A stretch of 40,732 nucleotides of DNA from a virus, in the UHGV virus genome UHGV-0045958, one strand, 5' to 3'. Below the pieces are notes generated by a model that was given only the letters and a program-made list of their open reading frames with translations, was not told the origin of the DNA and made no database searches. Shown in pieces: positions 50-18,422 of this stretch. The translations under genes and the position numbers were made by a program. Position 1 is the first letter of the stretch. Each line of letters starts with the position of its first letter.

Positions 50-1168
50 TCAAATAACCAACTTAACCCATTCCTGACCTCGAGTATCGTTATAGCGATC
101 GGTGGTTGCCTGGACTTTATGTCCTAGTAATGTTTTTGTATCGATACCCTGTGCACGGTACAGCCGTTCTGATAGAGAGCGTTGTTCATGAAATGTTGGC
201 GGAGTTTTTCCTGCTGGTGGAATTATCCCAGCCAGATCCCGTGCTTTGGCAAAGTAGTCGCTCAGGTTGTCTTTACTCATCGGCTTCGGTTGTTTCTGGT
301 GCCGACTATGGATTAGATATGGACTTAATATTCTGTCTCGGCACCCATCAATAACTTCTTTTAACGTTATCCCAATGGCATCACAGCGTAGTGTAAGCGG
401 TAACGCCAGACGCATTCCGGTTTTTCCCTGGGTGATATGCAAGTGTTCGTTCCACACATCTGAAAAACGCATGTGGCAAATGTCATCACGGCGCTGACCA
501 GTAACAATCGCAAGAAGCATTGCGTTACGGATAAAGTGTTTTTCAGGCGTTGCATTGTAAATTTTTTGCCAGTCTTCCATGGTGAGCCTGGCTCTGGTTA
601 CTTTAGGGATCGGTTTACGGGTAGCCTCCGGAGGATTCCATCCAGGAGGAACTTCCCCTGCATGCTGTGCTTCTTTATAAATATCAACCCATAATCCACG
701 ATTTACTCTCGCTGTGCTGACCATGTCTTTATCCAGCCACTCATCCAGTATTAATGCAAAGTCTCTTACTTCCAGTTCTTTCAATGGGTGGTTTCCCAGA
801 CGGGAAACCAGGTATGCAGCCATTCGAGTTTTTTCTTTGTGAGTTGTAGCTGCAATATCTCCATTTTTCAGTCGCGTGTCCTGTATTTTCAGATATCGAT
901 CAACCCATGCCTTTAATCTGATACCCCGACGTTTTGTTGCTGACAGACTTTCATCAATTTTGCGCATGAAATATTCAGCTTCTGCTGCAGCTATTCGCTG
1001 ATTGGCTGTGGAAGCGATTTTTTCTGCCTTACCTTTGTCTGTTCCGAGTCCGTGAAATTTTCCAGTCACAGGATTTTTATACTGGTAGTAAACTCTGCCA
1101 GTTCTGCGATCAAACTTTTCGTAAAGACCGGCTACGTCAGTGCTGTTTTTTCGTGGCCTCGGTGACAT
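50..1168 (-). CDS. int: phage integrase (tyrosine recombinase)
   Basis: 372-aa ORF at the prophage left end; C-terminal region looks like a tyrosine recombinase catalytic domain (HxxR...Y context, ...LGHKVQATTDRYND); start overlaps the xis candidate upstream. Confidence 0.88.
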   Translation of the reverse strand: MSPRPRKNSTDVAGLYEKFDRRTGRVYYQYKNPVTGKFHGLGTDKGKAEKIASTANQRIAAAEAEYFMRKIDESLSATKRRGIRLKAWVDRYLKIQDTRLKNGDIAATTHKEKTRMAAYLVSRLGNHPLKELEVRDFALILDEWLDKDMVSTARVNRGLWVDIYKEAQHAGEVPPGWNPPEATRKPIPKVTRARLTMEDWQKIYNATPEKHFIRNAMLLAIVTGQRRDDICHMRFSDVWNEHLHITQGKTGMRLALPLTLRCDAIGITLKEVIDGCRDRILSPYLIHSRHQKQPKPMSKDNLSDYFAKARDLAGIIPPAGKTPPTFHEQRSLSERLYRAQGIDTKTLLGHKVQATTDRYNDTRGQEWVKLVI

Positions 1169-1406
1169 GAGTTAAAATCTCCTTCAGTGCATCATCATCG
1201 CCAGTATGAATTTCCGGCGCAATTCCCGTTTCACCAGGCCCAACAAATACTGCTCGGCGATCTATCAGCCAACGCCCACGAATTTTTTGTGGCCTTGGAA
1301 CGATGTATCCTAGTTTTCCGTATTTCACCAGGGTAGTGTTTGTTATTGGGAGACTGAACCGTTTTGGTTTCCACTCGTCGAGCGTTATCAGGTACTGTTC
1401 GCTCAT
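1137..1406 (-). CDS. xis: excisionase-like protein
   Basis: Small ORF directly upstream of and overlapping int, in the canonical xis position; ATG at 1406 has a GGAG about 9 nt upstream, and GTG at 1415 is an alternative start. Identity is by position and size only. Confidence 0.6.
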   Translation of the reverse strand: MSEQYLITLDEWKPKRFSLPITNTTLVKYGKLGYIVPRPQKIRGRWLIDRRAVFVGPGETGIAPEIHTGDDDALKEILTHVTEATKKQH

Positions 1407-1467: not shown

Positions 1468-3909
1468 TTAAAAATCAGCCTGACTCGGGATCAGTTTTTG
1501 CCAGATAACTGAAACGTATTTTGCCTGGTAACGGGCGTCATCAAGTGCATTATGGCGCTCACCTTCGAATGGAATAGCCGTTCTGGCATCGAAGTCTATG
1601 GCTTTCCCCAGCTCAACGATTGTGCGTACATCGCGATCGTTGTAGTAACGCCACGGGCAGGGGATCCCCTGCCGTTCGTATGAACGGCGCAAAATCGTGT
1701 TGTCGAAGTTGGCTCCATTTCCCCAGACCTGAACAAAAAATTCACCGGAGTTTTCGTCGATAAATTCCCGCAATTGTAACAGTGCATCATCTAACGGGAT
1801 TTCATCGGTCATAATGGCAGATTGCGCTTCGCGTGATTGCTTAAGCCACCATTTAATGGTGTCCCGATCAATGACTCCGCCAGCAGTTTCCAGATCGATA
1901 GTCTTACTAAATTCCGGTCCCATATCTCCGGTTTGCGGATCGAAAAATATTGCACCTATTGAGATGATCGGGGCATCAGGATTTTTTCCCATGGTTTCAA
2001 GGTCGATCATTAGATGGTCACACGTCCTGCTGGTGGATGTGATTTCTTGATGACCGTTCACCTTAATTGAGTGATCTGCCGTCTCGCCAGTTTCATTATC
2101 GCTATCGTGATGCTGATTGCCGCCAGTGTTCTCCTTGTGTGGATGTTCAGCGCCTTCCATTTCCTCCGGATCATCTTCCTGAACTTCAACCTGATACTCT
2201 TCATCGAATGTTTCCTGGTATGTTGCGTCGCCCATCACCGCGCCACAATCAGGGCAGTTGCCGCCGCCGGTCTGACCGCAGGCGGTGCAGACTTTTTCCA
2301 CTTCCTGTTGCGCCACTGGTTCGGATTGTTTCGTTTCTGGCTCGTTTTGTAACGCATTTGGGCTGTTTTGTTCCGCTTTTTGGTCGTTCCGTTCCGATTC
2401 ATGCTGGTTCTGGTTCACAGAATCGCGAGTCTGGATCCCTTTGACCCATTTCGGATCATTAGGGTCGCTAATCCCCTCAACAAATTCACCACGCGATACA
2501 GCAAGTAACTTATCGGCGTCAGGCTGGCTGATATTGGCTGCCTGCATAATTTTGTTTACTTCGTCAGCGGTGACTTTTACTTGGTTAGCGGAACTCACCT
2601 GCGACTGAGCATCCAGCGACTGCGCGTTCTGGCCATGTTCAGTTGTATCCGGTTCCATTGTTTCAGTTGTTGCCTGTTCACCTGCCATTGCGTCAGATGG
2701 TTGTGGTTTTTCTTCTTCTGTTTCACGCTCAGTAACCACCTCGCGGTTAATTTCTTCCAGGATATCTTTTTCCGGCGTATGCCGGGCAGCTGTGAGAGTT
2801 TCCTTGCTGGGGTTCTCGTGATCAGTTTCCGTCAAATAGGCGTTGATATACCCCTGAAGGCGTCCCGGGTAGTGATAAAATTCAGGGTGTGCGCTTCGGA
2901 TAAGTGCAAAAATAGCGGCGCGGGAATAGTCCAGAATACCCGGGGTTGCACGAAGTGCTGCGGACCATTCTTTGAACGGACTTTCTTTGTTCAGGACTAC
3001 TTCTTTTGCGCGACGATAAACGCTGCCCGGAATTTCATAAATATTAAAATCCATCGGAAGTGTGGCTGCTGCAATCTCCACATCCAGTGTGTCGAGGGTG
3101 TGTACTAAATTCGGATTGCGATCGGTTTTGTTCCCACCGCCAGCATTAGCACCGGAAGCCGTGCGGGTGATGCGTGAAACACGATTTCCTTTCATCCACT
3201 CTTTTGTCAGCAGACCCCGATCAGTGTAGTCAGCGTCTAGGTATGCTTCGAAAAAAGCAGTTATTAGTCCCAGGTCTGAATTACCAGGATTAGGGAAAAC
3301 TTTGTCAGTGTCACGAACCAGTTTGTGGAGGTCGCGAATCTCCAGCGAGTCGAGCAGACTGGTTTTATGCGAAATAGCCAGGGCAGTAACAGCCGGTAGT
3401 TCTTCAGCCCGTGCAATGTGTAATGCCTGGAGTTCGTCGCGTGAAACGTGCGTTACTGGTTTTTCGCTGCCGTGTTGAGCAAGCCAACGAATGGGCAGTT
3501 CCTGACCGGAGACAGGCAGAAGCATGCTCTCCTCAATCTCAGTCATGGCTTCGCCGTTGATGTTGGTATTGTCAGTGCTGGCTGGTTTGTCCTGAACAGA
3601 GGGGGAAGGGCCGATAAATGTCATTGTGATGCCATCTTTCCCGCCTTTTTCATAGCGGTTGCAGAATTCAGTATCAAACACGCCTTCTGGCGGAAGGTCG
3701 TCAACAACGGGCAAATTGACGCGGACGGGTTTTTTAAAGTCGTCTTCATCATAATCGTTGTCATCCATTGCGGTAATGCAGCGGGAGATTGCAACAGATA
3801 ATTTTTTTGCTGTAGTCCAGTAAAAACCACCTTTAATTCCTAGGCGTTTTCTTACTTTGTCATTTTTTGCTTCGCAATATAGTGCAAATTCTTCTTTATC
3901 AGTGCTCAT
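1468..3909 (-). CDS. large exonuclease-family protein with C-terminal DnaQ-like (DEDDh) 3'-5' exonuclease domain
   Basis: 813-aa ORF; C-terminal ~180 aa carries DEDDh-type motifs ([11 protein letters not shown] ... [11 protein letters not shown]); central Glu/Gln/Ser-rich low-complexity linker with a CxxC-x9-CxxC zinc ribbon ([16 protein letters not shown]). Confidence 0.8.
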
Positions 3910-4002
3910 TATTGGTAAACCTCATCACAGATTTAAGGGTGAACAAATCTCTGCCATTGCTGACATATAAGAATGAAACTGGATATTTATTACGGTGCTG
4001 TT

Positions 4003-4194
4003 TTAAAATCCTGCCGGGATTTCGTTATTATCCTGGTGAATAACTTTATCGACCGGATAACAGTTGCCTGGAATTTTCTGTTCGGTTGCTGCTGCCATAC
4101 ATTCCTGCATTGTTCTGTGAACACTGACTGCAATATCAACTGGCTCTCCGGAAACAAGAAAAACCGTCAGAATAAGTGCAAATACTGGATTCAT
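4003..4194 (-). CDS. ydfD: YdfD-like small membrane (lysis) protein
   Basis: 63-aa product from the internal Met (MNPVFALILTVFLVSGEPVD...) with a hydrophobic N-terminus; its start overlaps the dicB stop (ATGA), as in the Qin dicB-ydfD arrangement. Confidence 0.6.
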   Translation of the reverse strand: MNPVFALILTVFLVSGEPVDIAVSVHRTMQECMAAATEQKIPGNCYPVDKVIHQDNNEIPAGF

Positions 4195-4379
4195 TGTGCA
4201 CATCCTTTTGGCATCAGACGTAAACGGGCCAGCATTGAAACAATGCATACTTTATTTAATAACTCCCGTTCGTGTTTTCTTTTGTTAATGGCATCTTCAG
4301 TAAATACAGGATTACTGATAGTGACACCAATTTCAAAACAACCTTCAGACGTATTAACGTTTGGTAATAACGTTTTCAT
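4191..4379 (-). CDS. dicB: DicB-like cell division inhibitor
   Basis: 62-aa product MKTLLPNVNTSEGCFEIGVTISNPVFTEDAINKRKHERELLNKVCIVSMLARLRLMPKGCAQ closely matches recalled Qin DicB; start taken at the internal Met of the 97-aa track ORF. Confidence 0.8.
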   Translation of the reverse strand: MKTLLPNVNTSEGCFEIGVTISNPVFTEDAINKRKHERELLNKVCIVSMLARLRLMPKGCAQ

Positions 4380-4548
4380 TATCGCGCCCTCAACAATGAG
4401 TTTTGTGATGCGGTGCCTGGTGCCTCCAGGTGACGTTAACCAGTTAACAATTAACGCCGGATACAGAGAATCCACCCATAACACTGTTTTTGGTTTTAAC
4501 TGTTCCGCGTGCGCTTAGCCGCATTCACCGCATCACAAAATTCACTTT

Positions 4549-4606
4549 AAAAAGGGCGGCAGAGCAGTCACGGAGTAAAACTGATACCGCCAAACGTCAC
4601 CAGAAA
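4549..4606 (-). ncRNA. dicF: DicF small RNA (ftsZ-targeting sRNA) with intrinsic terminator
   Basis: Minus-strand sequence 5'-TTTCTGGTGACGTTTGGCGGTATCAGTTTTACTCCGTGACTGCTCTGCCGCCCTTTTT-3' matches the recalled DicF sequence, ends in a GC stem plus U-tract, and lies immediately upstream of dicB. Confidence 0.8.
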
Positions 4607-4947
4607 ATTGATAACAGAGGGCGTTGCAGTGGGGTTGTCACTTAAGCGTATGGTCAACCTGACAACCCGGTGTCCTCAACGGGGGAAGGAATAACCCCGC
4701 CATACTTACCGCCGCGCCATTTCGCGGATTGCCACAACCGGAAGCGCACGGTCGACGAAAATTTAACGACAGGCTATCTATGAACCAGCTACCTCGCCGT
4801 GCGCTTTCGCGTTATGGTCTGACTTTTCAGGGAAATATCCTTTCAGTAAACTGTCAGTGCCGGATGCTCACCCGTGTCCGGCGCACGCACTCCACCTCAC
4901 CCGTGGAGAACTCCTTAATTACCAACCTTAGCTTCGTTGGTTATCTA

Positions 4948-5166
4948 TTAACGCGGGTATGTAATCATTCTGGCAATGCTTAATGCCGCTGCTTTTTCCA
5001 GCCTGGTGATATCCTGCTCCAGAGCGGACAGATTTTCAGCCTGCTTAGCCCTGGCTTCATTGGCCCATTTCAAATCCTGCGCTGCATTAATTTTCTGGCG
5101 CATCCACTCATAAAGTTCATCATCGGTATAGTCTGGCGCGATGATGACGGGTTCTCGTTTCTGCAT
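4948..5166 (-). CDS. YdfC-like hypothetical protein
   Basis: 72-aa ORF with a strong RBS (AAGGAG about 6 nt upstream of ATG at 5166), in the position of Qin ydfC upstream of dicF. Confidence 0.55.
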   Translation of the reverse strand: MQKREPVIIAPDYTDDELYEWMRQKINAAQDLKWANEARAKQAENLSALEQDITRLEKAAALSIARMITYPR

Positions 5167-5258
5167 GTCGGCTCCTTGTGGTTAGCGTTGCCTGCTTTTA
5201 ACCACGTCAGGCGAGGTGGTATCCTCTGAGGGGTCTGTTACTCGAGAGGAAATTGGTT

Positions 5259-5459
5259 ATGAATACAATCAAGTTTTCTTGCCCAGAATGTGGTGGCGAA
5301 GTCTTTGACACATCCTTTAAACCGCAGGGCTCTGACAGTTTCGCGGGAGCCATCTGCAAAAATTGTGGTCACCTTGTAACTGAAGATGAGTCCTCGCAGT
5401 TTGATGACGAAATCGTTGACAATATCTTCGGTGCACTCACCAGAGACTTTCTGAAGTAA
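5259..5459 (+). CDS. small zinc-ribbon protein (hypothetical)
   Basis: 66 aa with paired CPECGG ... CKNCGH motifs and an acidic C-terminus; GAGAGGA RBS about 9 nt upstream of ATG 5259. It lies antisense to an overlapping 118-aa minus-strand ORF (5238..5594), so the strand assignment is uncertain. Confidence 0.35.
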   Translation: MNTIKFSCPECGGEVFDTSFKPQGSDSFAGAICKNCGHLVTEDESSQFDDEIVDNIFGALTRDFLK

Positions 5460-5890
5460 AGGCGCATACCGCTTAGTTACCGCTCTGATAATTCTTACCT
5501 GTCCGGCAATGGCGCTGATATCAATATAAAGCGCCATCGCTGTTTCTTTGCTGATCCCTGGACGCCTTCCATTCTGATGTTTGACTTCGCCCACTGAGAA
5601 ATCCTCTGTTTCCCCTTAACGCCGGGGTAGCGGAACAAAAACCTGCTGCATAGTTATTAAAGTTGAACCCTGCCGTCATGTTCTTACGCCTCGGGCTGGC
5701 TACTTAACCCCTGACCACTGCCTGGTAACTCGAAGTATTGCCCTGCATTCTGTAGGATGGGGTGAGGGAATGAATGAAGTTTAGAAAAACGAACTTTTCA
5801 GGTCAATGTTTTTTTATCAAAACATTTTAAGCAGGCAGCTGTTAAGCCATCACCACGATGGCATACAGTTAATCAAATAGATGAGGTTGG

Positions 5891-6529
5891 TTAAATATCT
5901 TGTTGAATTTTAAAGCATACGCCCAATATGCAAGATAGATCATCCAGCATAATTGAAGGGTAGCGAGGATTCGTGGGGACTAAAAGAATATCCGGCCCTT
6001 CTATCTCCAGTTTACGAATGACAGGTGTTGTGGTCCCTTTGGGTAAGGCAAGGACAATATTTCCTGGTTGTACGGTTCGATCGGGATCAACAAAAACTGT
6101 TGAACCATTTGGGATGGAAACTCCCCCACCAGATGTTGACATACTGTCACTCTCTAGAACAACTGCAAAGGTATTGACCGGGATTTCTCCGACAAGCTGC
6201 ACACAAGAGGTTATTGAGGAATTTTTCATATAATCACTCCAGCTTGCTGCCTGCTGAAGTGATAGTAGCGGAACCGTTTTTATCGGCGGTAAAGATAGAT
6301 CAAGCGAATCACCTGTATTTAACTCTCCTCCATTAAGAAGCCAATTTTCGTTTACTTTCAATATTTTTGCCAGTGAACTTATGTAACGCGAGGACGGCGC
6401 TCCTCCACCGTTCATCCATTGACTTACGGAGCCTTTTGATGCGCCAGTGCCATTGACAAGGTCTTTGCCTTTCAGGTTTAGCGCATGCATACGTTGGGTT
6501 ATGCGTTCAGATATAGTTTGCTTGCTCAT
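5891..6529 (-). CDS. cI: CI-like repressor (HTH XRE domain + S24 LexA-like peptidase domain)
   Basis: 212 aa; N-terminal HTH and C-terminal S24-like autocleavage domain architecture; divergent from the cro-like gene across a 91-bp intergenic region. Confidence 0.85.
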   Translation of the reverse strand: MSKQTISERITQRMHALNLKGKDLVNGTGASKGSVSQWMNGGGAPSSRYISSLAKILKVNENWLLNGGELNTGDSLDLSLPPIKTVPLLSLQQAASWSDYMKNSSITSCVQLVGEIPVNTFAVVLESDSMSTSGGGVSIPNGSTVFVDPDRTVQPGNIVLALPKGTTTPVIRKLEIEGPDILLVPTNPRYPSIMLDDLSCILGVCFKIQQDI

Positions 6530-6620
6530 GTTTTGATTTTAAAACACAGATGGTTTTGTTTCTTGACTTTCTTTGGTTTTGATTATTAAACTTTTGACGT
6601 TCAGTTTTATGGAGCGACTC
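6530..6620. promoter_or_regulatory. divergent immunity-region promoter/operator region (candidate pRM/pR with repeated TTTTGA(T/C) motifs)
   Basis: 91-bp AT-rich spacer between the cI and cro-like starts; TTGACT -35-like hexamer at 6563-6568; about four spaced copies of GTTTTGAT-like motifs that could be operators. Confidence 0.45.
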
Positions 6621-10559: not shown

Positions 10560-10741
10560 TAGAATGACTGCGGGTGCTTGAGGCTATCTGTCTCAGGCAT
10601 GAACACCAAAAGGCAGATAGAGAAAAGCCCCAGTTAACATTACGCGTCCTGCAAGACGCTTAACATTAATCTGAGGCTCAATCTATGAACGGCAAATCTA
10701 GGTTAGCCTCTTACGTGCCGAAAGGCAAGGAGAAGCAGGCT
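10560..10741. promoter_or_regulatory. hok mRNA leader with in-frame mok-like upstream start (ATG 10685); expected location of an antisense Sok-like RNA
   Basis: Inferred from hok-family type I toxin-antitoxin organisation; the ORF from 10685 extends hok by 19 codons in frame; no Sok sequence was verified. Confidence 0.3.
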
Positions 10742-10897
10742 ATGAAGCAGCAAAAGGCGATGTTAATCGCCCTGATCGTCATCTGTTTAACCGTCATTGT
10801 GACGGCACTGGTAACGAGGAAAGACCTCTGCGAGGTACGAATCCGAACCGGCCAGACGGAGGTCGCTGTCTTCACAGCTTACGAACCTGAGGAGTAA
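10742..10897 (+). CDS. hokD: Hok/Gef-family type I toxin (HokD/RelF-like)
   Basis: 51-aa product MKQQKAMLIALIVICLTVIVTALVTRKDLCEVRIRTGQTEVAVFTAYEPEE matches recalled HokD (RelF); AAGGAG RBS upstream. Confidence 0.8.
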   Translation: MKQQKAMLIALIVICLTVIVTALVTRKDLCEVRIRTGQTEVAVFTAYEPEE

Positions 10898-14163: not shown

Positions 14164-14364
14164 ATTGTCTGGCTGCCGGAGAATTTGTTAAAAATTACAT
14201 CGCATGGTGAATCCCCCTCAGCGGCGGGGCATCTGGCAAAGTGTATGATCCAGAGAACATGCAAATTCAGTAGACAGGCTGAATTTACCGGGAGGCCCCT
14301 GGCACCATGCGACAGACAGAAATTAGGCTATACTTCAGCCCCTCTCCGGAGGGGCTTTTCTGTG
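14164..14364 (+). repeat. structured terminator-capped element, copy A (candidate sRNA or late-leader element)
   Basis: Shares with copy B a promoter-like 5' block, the gcatggtg/caccatgc long-range complement, a ccgggaggc block and an identical AGCCCCTC-tccg-GAGGGGCT terminator followed by a T-tract. Confidence 0.5.
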
Positions 14365-14632
14365 CAGGATGTGTCACAGTTTCCTGAATTCTGAGTACTG
14401 TCCTGTTACTCAGGGTGCTATATTTTCTGACGTGATGAAAGTCTGCCGGAAGGCGGAACGTATCGGAAATGACCCAGTAGAGAAAACGTTGACTCAGATA
14501 CCGATGCTGAGTTACCGGGAAACCGGCATCACATGACCGCTATCCTTCCAGGCTCGCTCCGGCGGGCCTTTTTACTGCAGAAAACAGTTTTCCCGTAAAA
14601 TGCCACGTTGCTCATAATTCAGGCTGGCGATT

Positions 14633-14830
14633 ATTGTCTGGCCGGCGGGAAGTTTGTTAAAAAATTTCGCATGGTGAATCCCCCTGTGCGGAGGGGTAAT
14701 CAGCGAGTAGGTATATGGGATAATCGCGGATTCAGGTGCTGGTACTGAATTCACCGGGAGGCACCCGGCACCATGCAATGGCACATAGCGCCACTCTCCA
14801 GCCCCTCTCCGGAGGGGCTGTTTATATTGA
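14633..14830 (+). repeat. structured terminator-capped element, copy B
   Basis: Imperfect duplicate of copy A with the same terminal hairpin (14800-14819). Confidence 0.5.
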
Positions 14831-14854: not shown

Positions 14855-15190
14855 TTATGGACTTTGTTGTTTTAGTCCATAAGGACATATTTGCAGAATG
14901 CAACGGTTATTAAAGCATTCATTCAATACGTTATCTGTATTTGTAGGGCATTCCTGGCTGTTTTTGATTAAATTCCAGAATGTTTTATTGAATGGTACTA
15001 CGTTGTAAATGGTTACAGGTAGCACTTTGTTATTGAGCATGATACCTGTGTGAGTCAGTGTAAATATACTTTCAGGAGGTAAGAAAGCATCCGATTGATA
15101 CCAGATTATTAATTTTACTTTACTCCATATGACTGAAAAAGATATTCCGCATGATGGCTGGATAACTGTATCAATTACAATCCACTTCAT
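14855..15190 (-). CDS. hypothetical protein (AT-rich moron, 111 aa)
   Basis: Reverse-strand ORF in a markedly AT-rich island; AAGGAAG RBS 5 nt upstream of ATG; 11-bp inverted repeat ccttatggact/agtccataagg (14853-14884) at its 3' end. Confidence 0.5.
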
Positions 15191-17603: not shown

Positions 17604-17897
17604 TTATTGTGAGCAATACACACGCGCTTCCAGTGGAGTATAAATGCCTAAAGTAATAAAACCGAGAAATCCATTTACGAATGTTTGCTGGGTTTCTGTT
17701 TTAACAACATTTTCTGCGCCGCCACAAATTTTGGCTGCATCAACAGTTTTCTCCTGTCCAATTCCCGAAACGAAGAAATGATGGGTGATGGTTTCCTTTG
17801 GTGTTACTGCTGTCGGTTTGTTTCCAACAGTAAACGTCTGTTGAGCACATCCTGTAATAAGCATTGCCAGAGCGGCAGAAAACAACATTTTTTTCAT
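17604..17897 (-). CDS. bor: Bor lipoprotein (serum resistance)
   Basis: MKKMLFSAALAMLITGCAQQTFTV...EARVYCSQ is near-identical to recalled lambda Bor; 97 aa from the internal Met of the track ORF. Confidence 0.85.
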   Translation of the reverse strand: MKKMLFSAALAMLITGCAQQTFTVGNKPTAVTPKETITHHFFVSGIGQEKTVDAAKICGGAENVVKTETQQTFVNGFLGFITLGIYTPLEARVYCSQ

Positions 17898-18422
17898 CTT
17901 ATTATCCTGCATTGTTAAAAACGGCAGAATCCTATGTGACAACAATTAAACGATAGTTAAATGGATTGATGAAAATTAAAACTATATAGGTGGATGCTCA
18001 GCCTATTGGAGGTAGTCAGGATTTGAATGTCAGTCTGTTGTCGGCATTCTGGCAATGCAATTTGGATAAAGCGGGGATTAAAAAGATAGAGGCGAGCCGG
18101 TCAGGTAGAAATGAATCAGGCTCAAAGTGAAGCGGAAAAGGTCTGTGGCACAAGCTGATGCAGCCATAATTACAGCCTGATGATTTGTGGAATGAAACAT
18201 GTTGAACCTCCTTAATTGATGTTATTCGAGTGATGAAGGCATTCTGTCCTTCTATAGTGTCCAGTAAATCAAACAGGAAACTTGTCCAACGTGTTGGACA
18301 AGCCTCTCCATTAGTGAGTTGTATTGATCACAACTCTACAAAGAATTCATTACTGGGTAGATGAAAATAGTTTCACTATGAATGGAGGAGGCTATGTCGG
18401 TGGCTTCTTCATTGGAGTACAT

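Follow-up and report, generated by a model that had tools for sequence, protein, structure and literature searches.

In Escherichia coli K-12 DicF, which is a small RNA (sRNA), and the division inhibitor DicB are encoded in the defective Qin prophage, within the operon ydfABC-dicF-dicB-ydfDE. Its source is a polycistronic RNA beginning at dicBp, the equivalent of a lambdoid early-left promoter (PL), from which DicF is cut: RNase III generates a 190-nucleotide (nt) species and RNase E the 53-nt DicF, and the transcripts described measure 1146 nt (ending at the DicF terminator) and 1608 nt (ending after ydfD) (PMC10448788). DicF represses ftsZ; it uses its 3′ region to pair with ftsZ mRNA and its 5′ end to pair with xylR, and pykA is a further target (PMC5069750). 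DicB acts with MinC at the septum (PMC6832061), and the DicB-MinC complex also stops ManYZ-dependent entry of phage DNA (PMC6832061; PMC10448788). YdfD is reported to bring about lysis on overproduction and to inhibit the IspG step of the methylerythritol phosphate (MEP) pathway (PMC8835842). Here we analysed a 40,732-nt stretch of viral DNA, UHGV virus genome UHGV-0045958 (the whole stretch is called the window), in which the dicBF module (ydfC, DicF, DicB and YdfD) very likely occupies its native place, the PL-type operon of a lambdoid prophage that has integrated beside potC.

All features of the block lie at 4003-5166 on the minus strand and run, from right to left, in the order ydfC, dicF, dicB, ydfD, just where a preliminary description of this DNA had placed the four elements. 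Comparison by blastn with the Qin prophage of K-12 MG1655 returned a single ungapped-like alignment of 1249 nt at 96% identity in which the block is colinear; it begins exactly at the ydfC ATG (5166) and stops at 3918, a few bases before the exonuclease start. The match is far beyond chance, and the assignments of ydfC, dicF, dicB and ydfD in the preliminary description were borne out when each was compared with its K-12 counterpart. In genomes that match the window exactly, PGAP already gives the names ydfC, dicB and ydfD. Three plus-strand open reading frames (ORFs) antisense to the block, of 181 amino acids (aa) at 3973-4518, 84 aa at 4729-4983 and 51 aa at 4490-4645, were rejected as spurious, being without family support and not called by PGAP.

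The dicF sRNA (53 nt; 4606..4554, minus strand) is identical to K-12 dicF (b1574) at 53/53 nt, and the Rfam DicF model (RF00039) was matched in full (model positions 1-52) at 4605..4554; the score of 76.7 bits (E 2e-15) is well above the family's gathering score of 48. Its intrinsic terminator (4549..4591, minus strand), a hairpin of -15.9 kcal/mol followed by UUUUU, is identical to that of K-12, so that the terminator is preserved as had been claimed. By sequence identity, the 5′ and 3′ pairing regions are those of characterised K-12 DicF. RNAduplex gave -38.5 kcal/mol for DicF against the K-12 ftsZ leader, a non-discriminating value that 20/300 shuffled DicF sequences also reached; the target pairing of the window DicF is predicted from its sequence identity and from the published K-12 work (PMC5069750).

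Immediately upstream, the ydfC-dicF spacer (4607..4947, about 340 nt, minus strand) corresponds to the DicF precursor leader, with 96.8% identity to K-12. Within it the last ~125-135 nt (about 4738..4607) match the 5′ portion of the 190-nt species that RNase III produces in K-12, the processing sites being taken from that strain (PMC10448788), and only a few positions of the 190-nt precursor region differ from K-12. A ~125-nt part of this stretch (4738..4615, minus strand) also recurs as a separately conserved unit: Stx2c phages, the cdtI phage and phage 2H10 have it, as does the leader of the P1 ban operon, where the copy is annotated 'dicF-like region', and copies lie in locus L004 at 2501-2623 and locus L005 at 2001-2094. 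A consensus fold of the stretch contains 36 pairs, 4 of them compensatory, derived from 4 sequences only, so that its covariation support is thin. In an Stx2c phage, a different hairpin and U-tract replaces DicF after the stretch; because another terminator hairpin stands there in DicF's place, this suggests an sRNA family that shares a processing platform and carries different 3′ parts.

The protein-coding genes of the block are equally close to those of Qin. dicB (62 aa; 4379..4191, minus strand) is identical to K-12 at 60/62 aa, the substitutions being Q36H and I44V, and residues 1-62 of 62 are covered by the DicB profiles Pfam PF05358 (135.4 bits against a cut-off of 27) and NCBIfam NF049927 (134.3 against 100). 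From this near-identity, MinC-dependent division inhibition would be expected of the window DicB. ydfD (63 aa, DUF1482; 4194..4003, minus strand) is identical to K-12 at 56/63 aa and scores 87.9 bits against a cut-off of 25 with Pfam PF07358; the sequence at 4191-4194 shows the ydfD start and the dicB stop overlapping as ATGA, as the preliminary description had also noted. ydfC (72 aa; 5166..4948, minus strand) matches K-12 YdfC at 71/72 aa and phrog_1744 at 134 bits, with no Pfam or NCBIfam match in the profile scans.

On its downstream side the block is followed on the same strand by an exonuclease gene (813 aa; 1468..3909), which combines an N-terminal RecE/Exonuc_VIII part (Pfam) with a C-terminal Rv2179c-like (DEDD-type) 3′-5′ exonuclease domain and falls below the NCBIfam cut-off for exodeoxyribonuclease VIII. 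Next come an excisionase gene (1137..1406, minus strand; Pfam Exc 23 bits, named 'excisionase' by PGAP in an identical genome) and a lambda-type integrase gene (50..1168, minus strand; Pfam Arm-DNA-bind_1 and Phage_integrase) that adjoins potC in identical genomes. Upstream lies a CI-like repressor gene (212 aa; 5891..6529, minus strand; Pfam Peptidase_S24 49.4 bits and HTH_3 20.8 bits; phrog_4 'transcriptional repressor' 138 bits), divergent from a P22-Cro-like gene and a YdaT-like gene. These family models confirm the earlier placement of the block between a CI-like repressor and exonuclease-xis-int. Over its first 25 kb the window is 100% identical to GenBank ON470619 ('phage vB_EcoS-813R8'), which includes host genes from potC on, and in complete genomes the same prophage adjoins potC.

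A promoter scan placed a candidate sigma-70-like early-left promoter at 5778..5824 on the minus strand (-35 TTGACC at 5806..5801, 17-nt spacer, -10 TAAACT at 5783..5778). Abutting its -35 box is an 18-bp palindrome, TGTTTT-N6-AAAACA (TGTTTTTTTATCAAAACA; 5807-5824), that is repeated in the cI-cro intergenic region (TGTTTTGATTTTAAAACA; 6529-6546), and the latter region also contains two TGGTTTTG(A/T)T repeats, at 6551-6564 and 6574-6587, 23 bp apart. The shared palindrome is the pattern expected for the left and right operators (OL and OR) of one repressor, and its copies are candidate operators. The locus has two features of a lambdoid PL-type operon, a same-strand repressor gene upstream and candidate operator repeats common to the leftward and rightward promoters.

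A leftward PL transcript would run through a ~175-nt leader and a 118-aa ORF (5594..5238) into ydfC and the rest of the block, and a scan of the minus strand from the promoter to ydfC found no terminator-like site. At 5772..5595 the leader shows no folding advantage over shuffled sequence (z +0.82). It includes a conserved 28-nt stretch with CCCCgGCGTTAAGGGG (5609..5636, minus strand), a 96% match to the K-12 ydfA 5′ leader and the only K-12 similarity upstream of ydfC; it immediately precedes the left operon's first ORF, has a copy in locus L001 (1971-1998), and in K-12 lies 11 nt before the ydfA start. A wider 156-nt leader (5764..5609) is common to phage Tritos and other phages with different immunity regions and downstream genes. 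The 118-aa ORF (minus strand; phrog_21318) has a GTG start at 5594 after a Shine-Dalgarno-like AGAGGA and is antisense to a zinc-ribbon gene of the ECs_2282 family (66 aa; 5259-5459, plus strand; NCBIfam 57 bits against a cut-off of 37) that is called by PGAP and followed at its 3′ side by a GC hairpin on the plus strand; annotators differ in the strand chosen at 5238-5594.

Comparison with Qin shows what is shared and where the likeness stops. Like the window, Qin has ydfC, a ~340-nt spacer, an identical dicF, a 173-nt spacer, dicB and ydfD, with the same ATGA overlap and terminator, and the orientation of the block relative to the repressor gene is the same. However, Qin carries ydfA and ydfB upstream, where the window instead has the 118-aa ORF antisense to the zinc-ribbon gene and only 28 nt of leader in common; its repressor is the 135-aa DicA under the antirepressor Rem (PMC10448788), whereas that of the window is a 212-aa protein with helix-turn-helix and S24 domains; and downstream it has the pseudogenes ydfE and intQ, whereas the window has an intact exonuclease-xis-int without similarity to these. 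We rejected the idea that the window exonuclease and integrase are intact forms of K-12 ydfE and intQ, as tblastn finds no similarity. Since the homology to Qin ends at the ydfC ATG and the exonuclease and integrase are unlike ydfE and intQ, the block is one exchangeable module among others and not an insertion into a foreign operon. The preliminary description had spoken of a Qin-type block inside an intact operon; the identity of the block stands, but the framing is back to front, because this lambdoid lineage carries the block as standard, and Qin represents such a phage in degraded form.

The same arrangement recurs in other phages. Phage Tritos carries CI, small ORFs, ydfC, an annotated DicF, dicB, ydfD and exonuclease VIII, with a block 97% identical to that of the window, and differs in having ydfA-like and ydfB-like ORFs and a 139-aa CI. 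The temperate coliphages Tritos, Evi and mEp460_ev081 all carry dicF and dicB, and their immunity regions and first left-operon genes differ from those of the window; mEp460_ev081 was described in 2023 as a functional phage with dicB- and dicF-like genes and DicA-like and Rem-like regulators (PMC10448788). In E. coli O157:H7 the CP-933 lambdoid prophages have the same block in full-size prophages (PMC5069750), with several DicF copies per genome (PMC6832061); these prophages have been described as defective, and variation occurs among their DicF copies, whereas the window DicF is identical to K-12. A 2016 study by the Vanderpool group reported no DicB or DicF match in about 2000 sequenced phage genomes (PMC5069750). 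In our searches about 80 records of the phage collection matched some part of the block, which was found in some part in 4756/5426 complete E. coli genomes and at >=80% coverage in 2687/5426, where it occupies a median of 2 places per genome and at most 10. The block in a lambdoid early-left operon is therefore already known and very common, and the finding as first stated is not new; the one local feature, an S24-type CI as partner of the block instead of DicA and Rem, is ordinary module shuffling.

The position of the block also corresponds to that of known kil genes. According to PMC3961180, lambda Kil and Rac KilR, which occupy the same map position between repressor and exo, arrest division on induction, and lambda Kil inhibits FtsZ assembly in a ZipA-dependent manner; DicB, in contrast, works via MinC, and the proteins are unrelated. 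The window module also has an sRNA arm (DicF) and YdfD, beyond what lambda Kil and Rac KilR provide. In Rac-type and Stx-type relatives, kil sits in the dicB slot, after a DicF-position hairpin and the same structured leader that precedes dicB here (see below), as in Shigella phage 75/02 Stx, PhiR5_2 and vB_EcoS-666R9, where it lies between the repressor side and exonuclease VIII. The reading of the block as a host-division shut-off or kil-like module, put forward in the preliminary description, agrees with the K-12 experiments, with the PL-like promoter upstream and with the kil genes in the slot of these relatives.

The structured leader lies in the 173-nt dicF-dicB spacer, as an STnc100-like RNA domain at 4407..4536 (minus strand) that ends 27 nt before the dicB ATG. 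A permissive scan matched Rfam STnc100 (RF02076) at 4542..4402 with 38.8 bits against a gathering score of 47 (E 2e-6), over model positions 21-154 only and without a terminator; by Rfam's criterion the element is related to the STnc100 core and is not a family member. Three other places gave sub-threshold STnc100 matches: the spacer of K-12, the sequence before kil in Shigella phage 75/02 Stx and that before tciA in P1. Ten copies were aligned and yielded a four-helix fold in which 93.4% of cells are paired and 15/29 pairs show compensatory changes; slid controls, with 3′ partners moved by 1-3 columns, gave 30-41% paired cells, a comparison that favours the fold in that it was derived from the alignment that scores it. 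In the closing helix (GAUGCGGUG/CACCGCAUC) and the GGAGGCACC hairpin the fold agrees with the STnc100 structure that Rfam gives independently, and the compensatory base changes strongly support it.

A covariance model built from the ten-copy alignment (R1) scored the window at 130.6 bits, all dicB, kil and tciA leaders at 98-131 and true STnc100 copies at 78-81. The whole HK022 genome gave nothing at E<=1 with R1, which was the sole put-related search, the put RNA itself being left out of the comparison. With this result, and with the early-left leader folding like shuffled sequence, an HK022 put-like RNA was rejected both as the PL leader and as the STnc100-like element. Copies of the element were also seen in loci L001 (2953-3082), L005 (3338-3463), L006 (2609-2740), L008 (4220-4350), L009 (1498-1637), L010 (1497-1623) and L011 (1774-1905).

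To see what follows the element, IMG/VR was scanned for its 5′ motif and the first downstream ORF was classed by a simple parser in at least 120 viral contigs. Among the 120 contigs listed, this ORF was DicB-like in 52, Kil-like in 16 and TciA-like in 1, with other ORFs in 11 and 40 that the parser did not resolve. Within each downstream-gene class the start codon lies at a fixed offset from the element, which also precedes tciA in P1 and D6, phages without an upstream DicF. We propose, with considerable reserve, that the spacer RNA is a portable 5′ leader shared by unrelated phage genes, mostly division inhibitors (dicB, kil and the tciA of P1 and D6). Such a leader may control the translation, stability or processing of the downstream gene. 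No mention of dicB or DicF was found in a 2026 preprint on STnc100 relatives.

Full-length STnc100 copies were observed elsewhere in the window: two, at 14172-14365 and 14641-14829 (plus strand; 138 and 132.5 bits), lie in tandem in the late region, downstream of the Q antiterminator gene and a tRNA, each with a terminator hairpin, beside a DUF3927/TciB-like gene and iraM.

The identities of the elements, their order, overlaps, terminator, promoter and operator candidates and distribution come from the present analysis; processing, targets and phenotypes are taken from K-12 experiments, and the K-12 mechanism is applied to the window because the sequences are nearly identical. In a lysogen, the CI-like repressor would bind the 18-bp palindrome at the -35 box of the leftward promoter and keep the operon off. 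On induction, leftward transcription would pass through the leader, ydfC and the structured spacer; RNase III and then RNase E would free DicF, as in K-12, with the intrinsic terminator making its 3′ end, and polymerases reading through that terminator would go on to dicB, ydfD, the exonuclease, xis and int. DicF with Hfq would block ftsZ translation and repress manX, xylR and pykA. DicB would bind MinC, which would be brought to the division ring, and DicB-MinC would inhibit ManYZ and so block lambda-like DNA injection; YdfD, a small membrane protein, would cause lysis when overproduced. The net effect during lytic growth would be an arrest of host division and probably the exclusion of competing phages; the module would act as a division shut-off, and probably as a superinfection-exclusion device, switched on together with the early-left operon. 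That expression starts at PL on induction, under the window's own CI and with this timing, is what we infer from the layout of the locus.

Several observations weigh against the PL-type operon setting. The early-left promoter and the operators are consensus and repeat matches, and the convergent zinc-ribbon gene sits in the path of the PL transcript. Similarity searches of the window, weak evidence in themselves, found no N-like antiterminator, nut or put element, and the candidates for an N-like gene between PL and ydfC, minus-strand ORFs of 52 aa (5521-5679) and 118 aa (5238-5594), were rejected in that they match only PHROGs of unknown function. With no antiterminator found, passage beyond the DicF terminator and efficient reach to exo-xis-int are unexplained, and in K-12 no transcript beyond 1608 nt was detected (PMC10448788). 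The S24 domain of the CI-like repressor has DSM and RKL motifs, but in comparison with lambda CI its linker reads QAAS with no Ala-Gly, so that RecA-stimulated self-cleavage is not assured. In strain 4/2-1, the block was seen to adjoin a 339-nt gene whose only annotation is 'LexA family protein'.

The absence of a recognised N-like antiterminator would also fit a defective prophage in which the block is a domesticated remnant, as in Qin, with no induction-coupled role. The identical record ON470619 does not prove a virion, as it is a PHASTER 'intact' software prediction, with host flank, from a carbapenemase-producing clinical isolate, and the lysates tested were mixed ones only; this, too, speaks against the operon setting, and in strain 4/2-1 the prohead protease gene of a near-identical prophage is frameshifted and further pseudogenes occur in it. 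Yet the phage genes of the window, from integrase through J, are uninterrupted ORFs (integrase, excisionase, exonuclease, repressor, cro, replication, Q, lysis, terminase, portal, protease, capsid, tail and J), and the isolated phage Tritos shares the left-operon architecture. We consider a defective remnant unlikely. Another reading gives dicB and ydfD an internal promoter, or an RNA unit of their own, within the dicF-dicB spacer in place of read-through from PL, so that DicF and DicB are controlled independently: the DicF terminator stands between PL and dicB, the 173-nt spacer holds a conserved structured element that travels with dicB, kil and tciA even without an upstream DicF (P1, D6), and an older study, as noted in PMC10448788, proposed a promoter upstream of dicB. 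Nevertheless, the promoter scan finds no minus-strand site in 4380-4553 and none is evident in the K-12 work (PMC10448788), making this arrangement very improbable.

A further reading concerns whom the block serves. In stationary-phase K-12 a repressed prophage still yields DicF, which accumulates, and dicBp switches on spontaneously in ~1% of cells (PMC10448788), and transient dicBF expression protects against lambda (PMC6832061); enterohaemorrhagic E. coli, according to work cited in PMC6832061, makes four DicF orthologs under microaerobic growth that promote virulence gene expression. The block might then act mainly for the lysogen, in conversion or defence, with leaky or stress expression providing DicF for host regulation in stationary phase or low oxygen and DicB against ManYZ-dependent phages, and division arrest would be a side effect. 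Its retention in many defective prophages, at the copy numbers given above, fits such a role. Against this, the block sits in the delayed-early slot, from repressor to exo-xis-int, where relatives carry kil, and K-12 work found no separate promoter for it. We hold a mainly lysogenic function to be a credible minority view, and it is compatible with the lytic role that the PL-type operon setting implies.

The remainder of the window holds a number of accessory features. No bet- or gam-like genes were seen adjoining the exonuclease. A hok/sok-type toxin-antitoxin locus lies in the early-right region (10572-10747, plus strand; Rfam sok 112 bits), with hokD annotated in identical genomes. Just 3′ of the Q gene is a phage tRNA (13746-13818, plus strand), tRNA-Met (CAT) in one annotation and tRNA-Ile by PGAP. 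The late region has two moron-type genes on the opposite strand, iraM, encoding an anti-adaptor (14855-15190, minus strand), and bor/iss, encoding a serum-resistance lipoprotein (about 17604-17900, minus strand), both annotated in identical records. At the far end, a tail-fibre ORF of at least 1145 aa runs past the window.

If the spacer RNA is indeed a portable leader, then DicF, the STnc100-like leader and the inhibitor gene would form one composite cassette, and the leader before dicB, kil and tciA is the only part of the system that might repay more work. As a whole, the locus is a clean example of full-length lambdoid prophages having dicBF as part of their early-left operon. With its combination of an identical DicF and a CI-type (S24) repressor, the window would be a convenient natural system in which to ask how far dicBF benefits the phage and how far the host.

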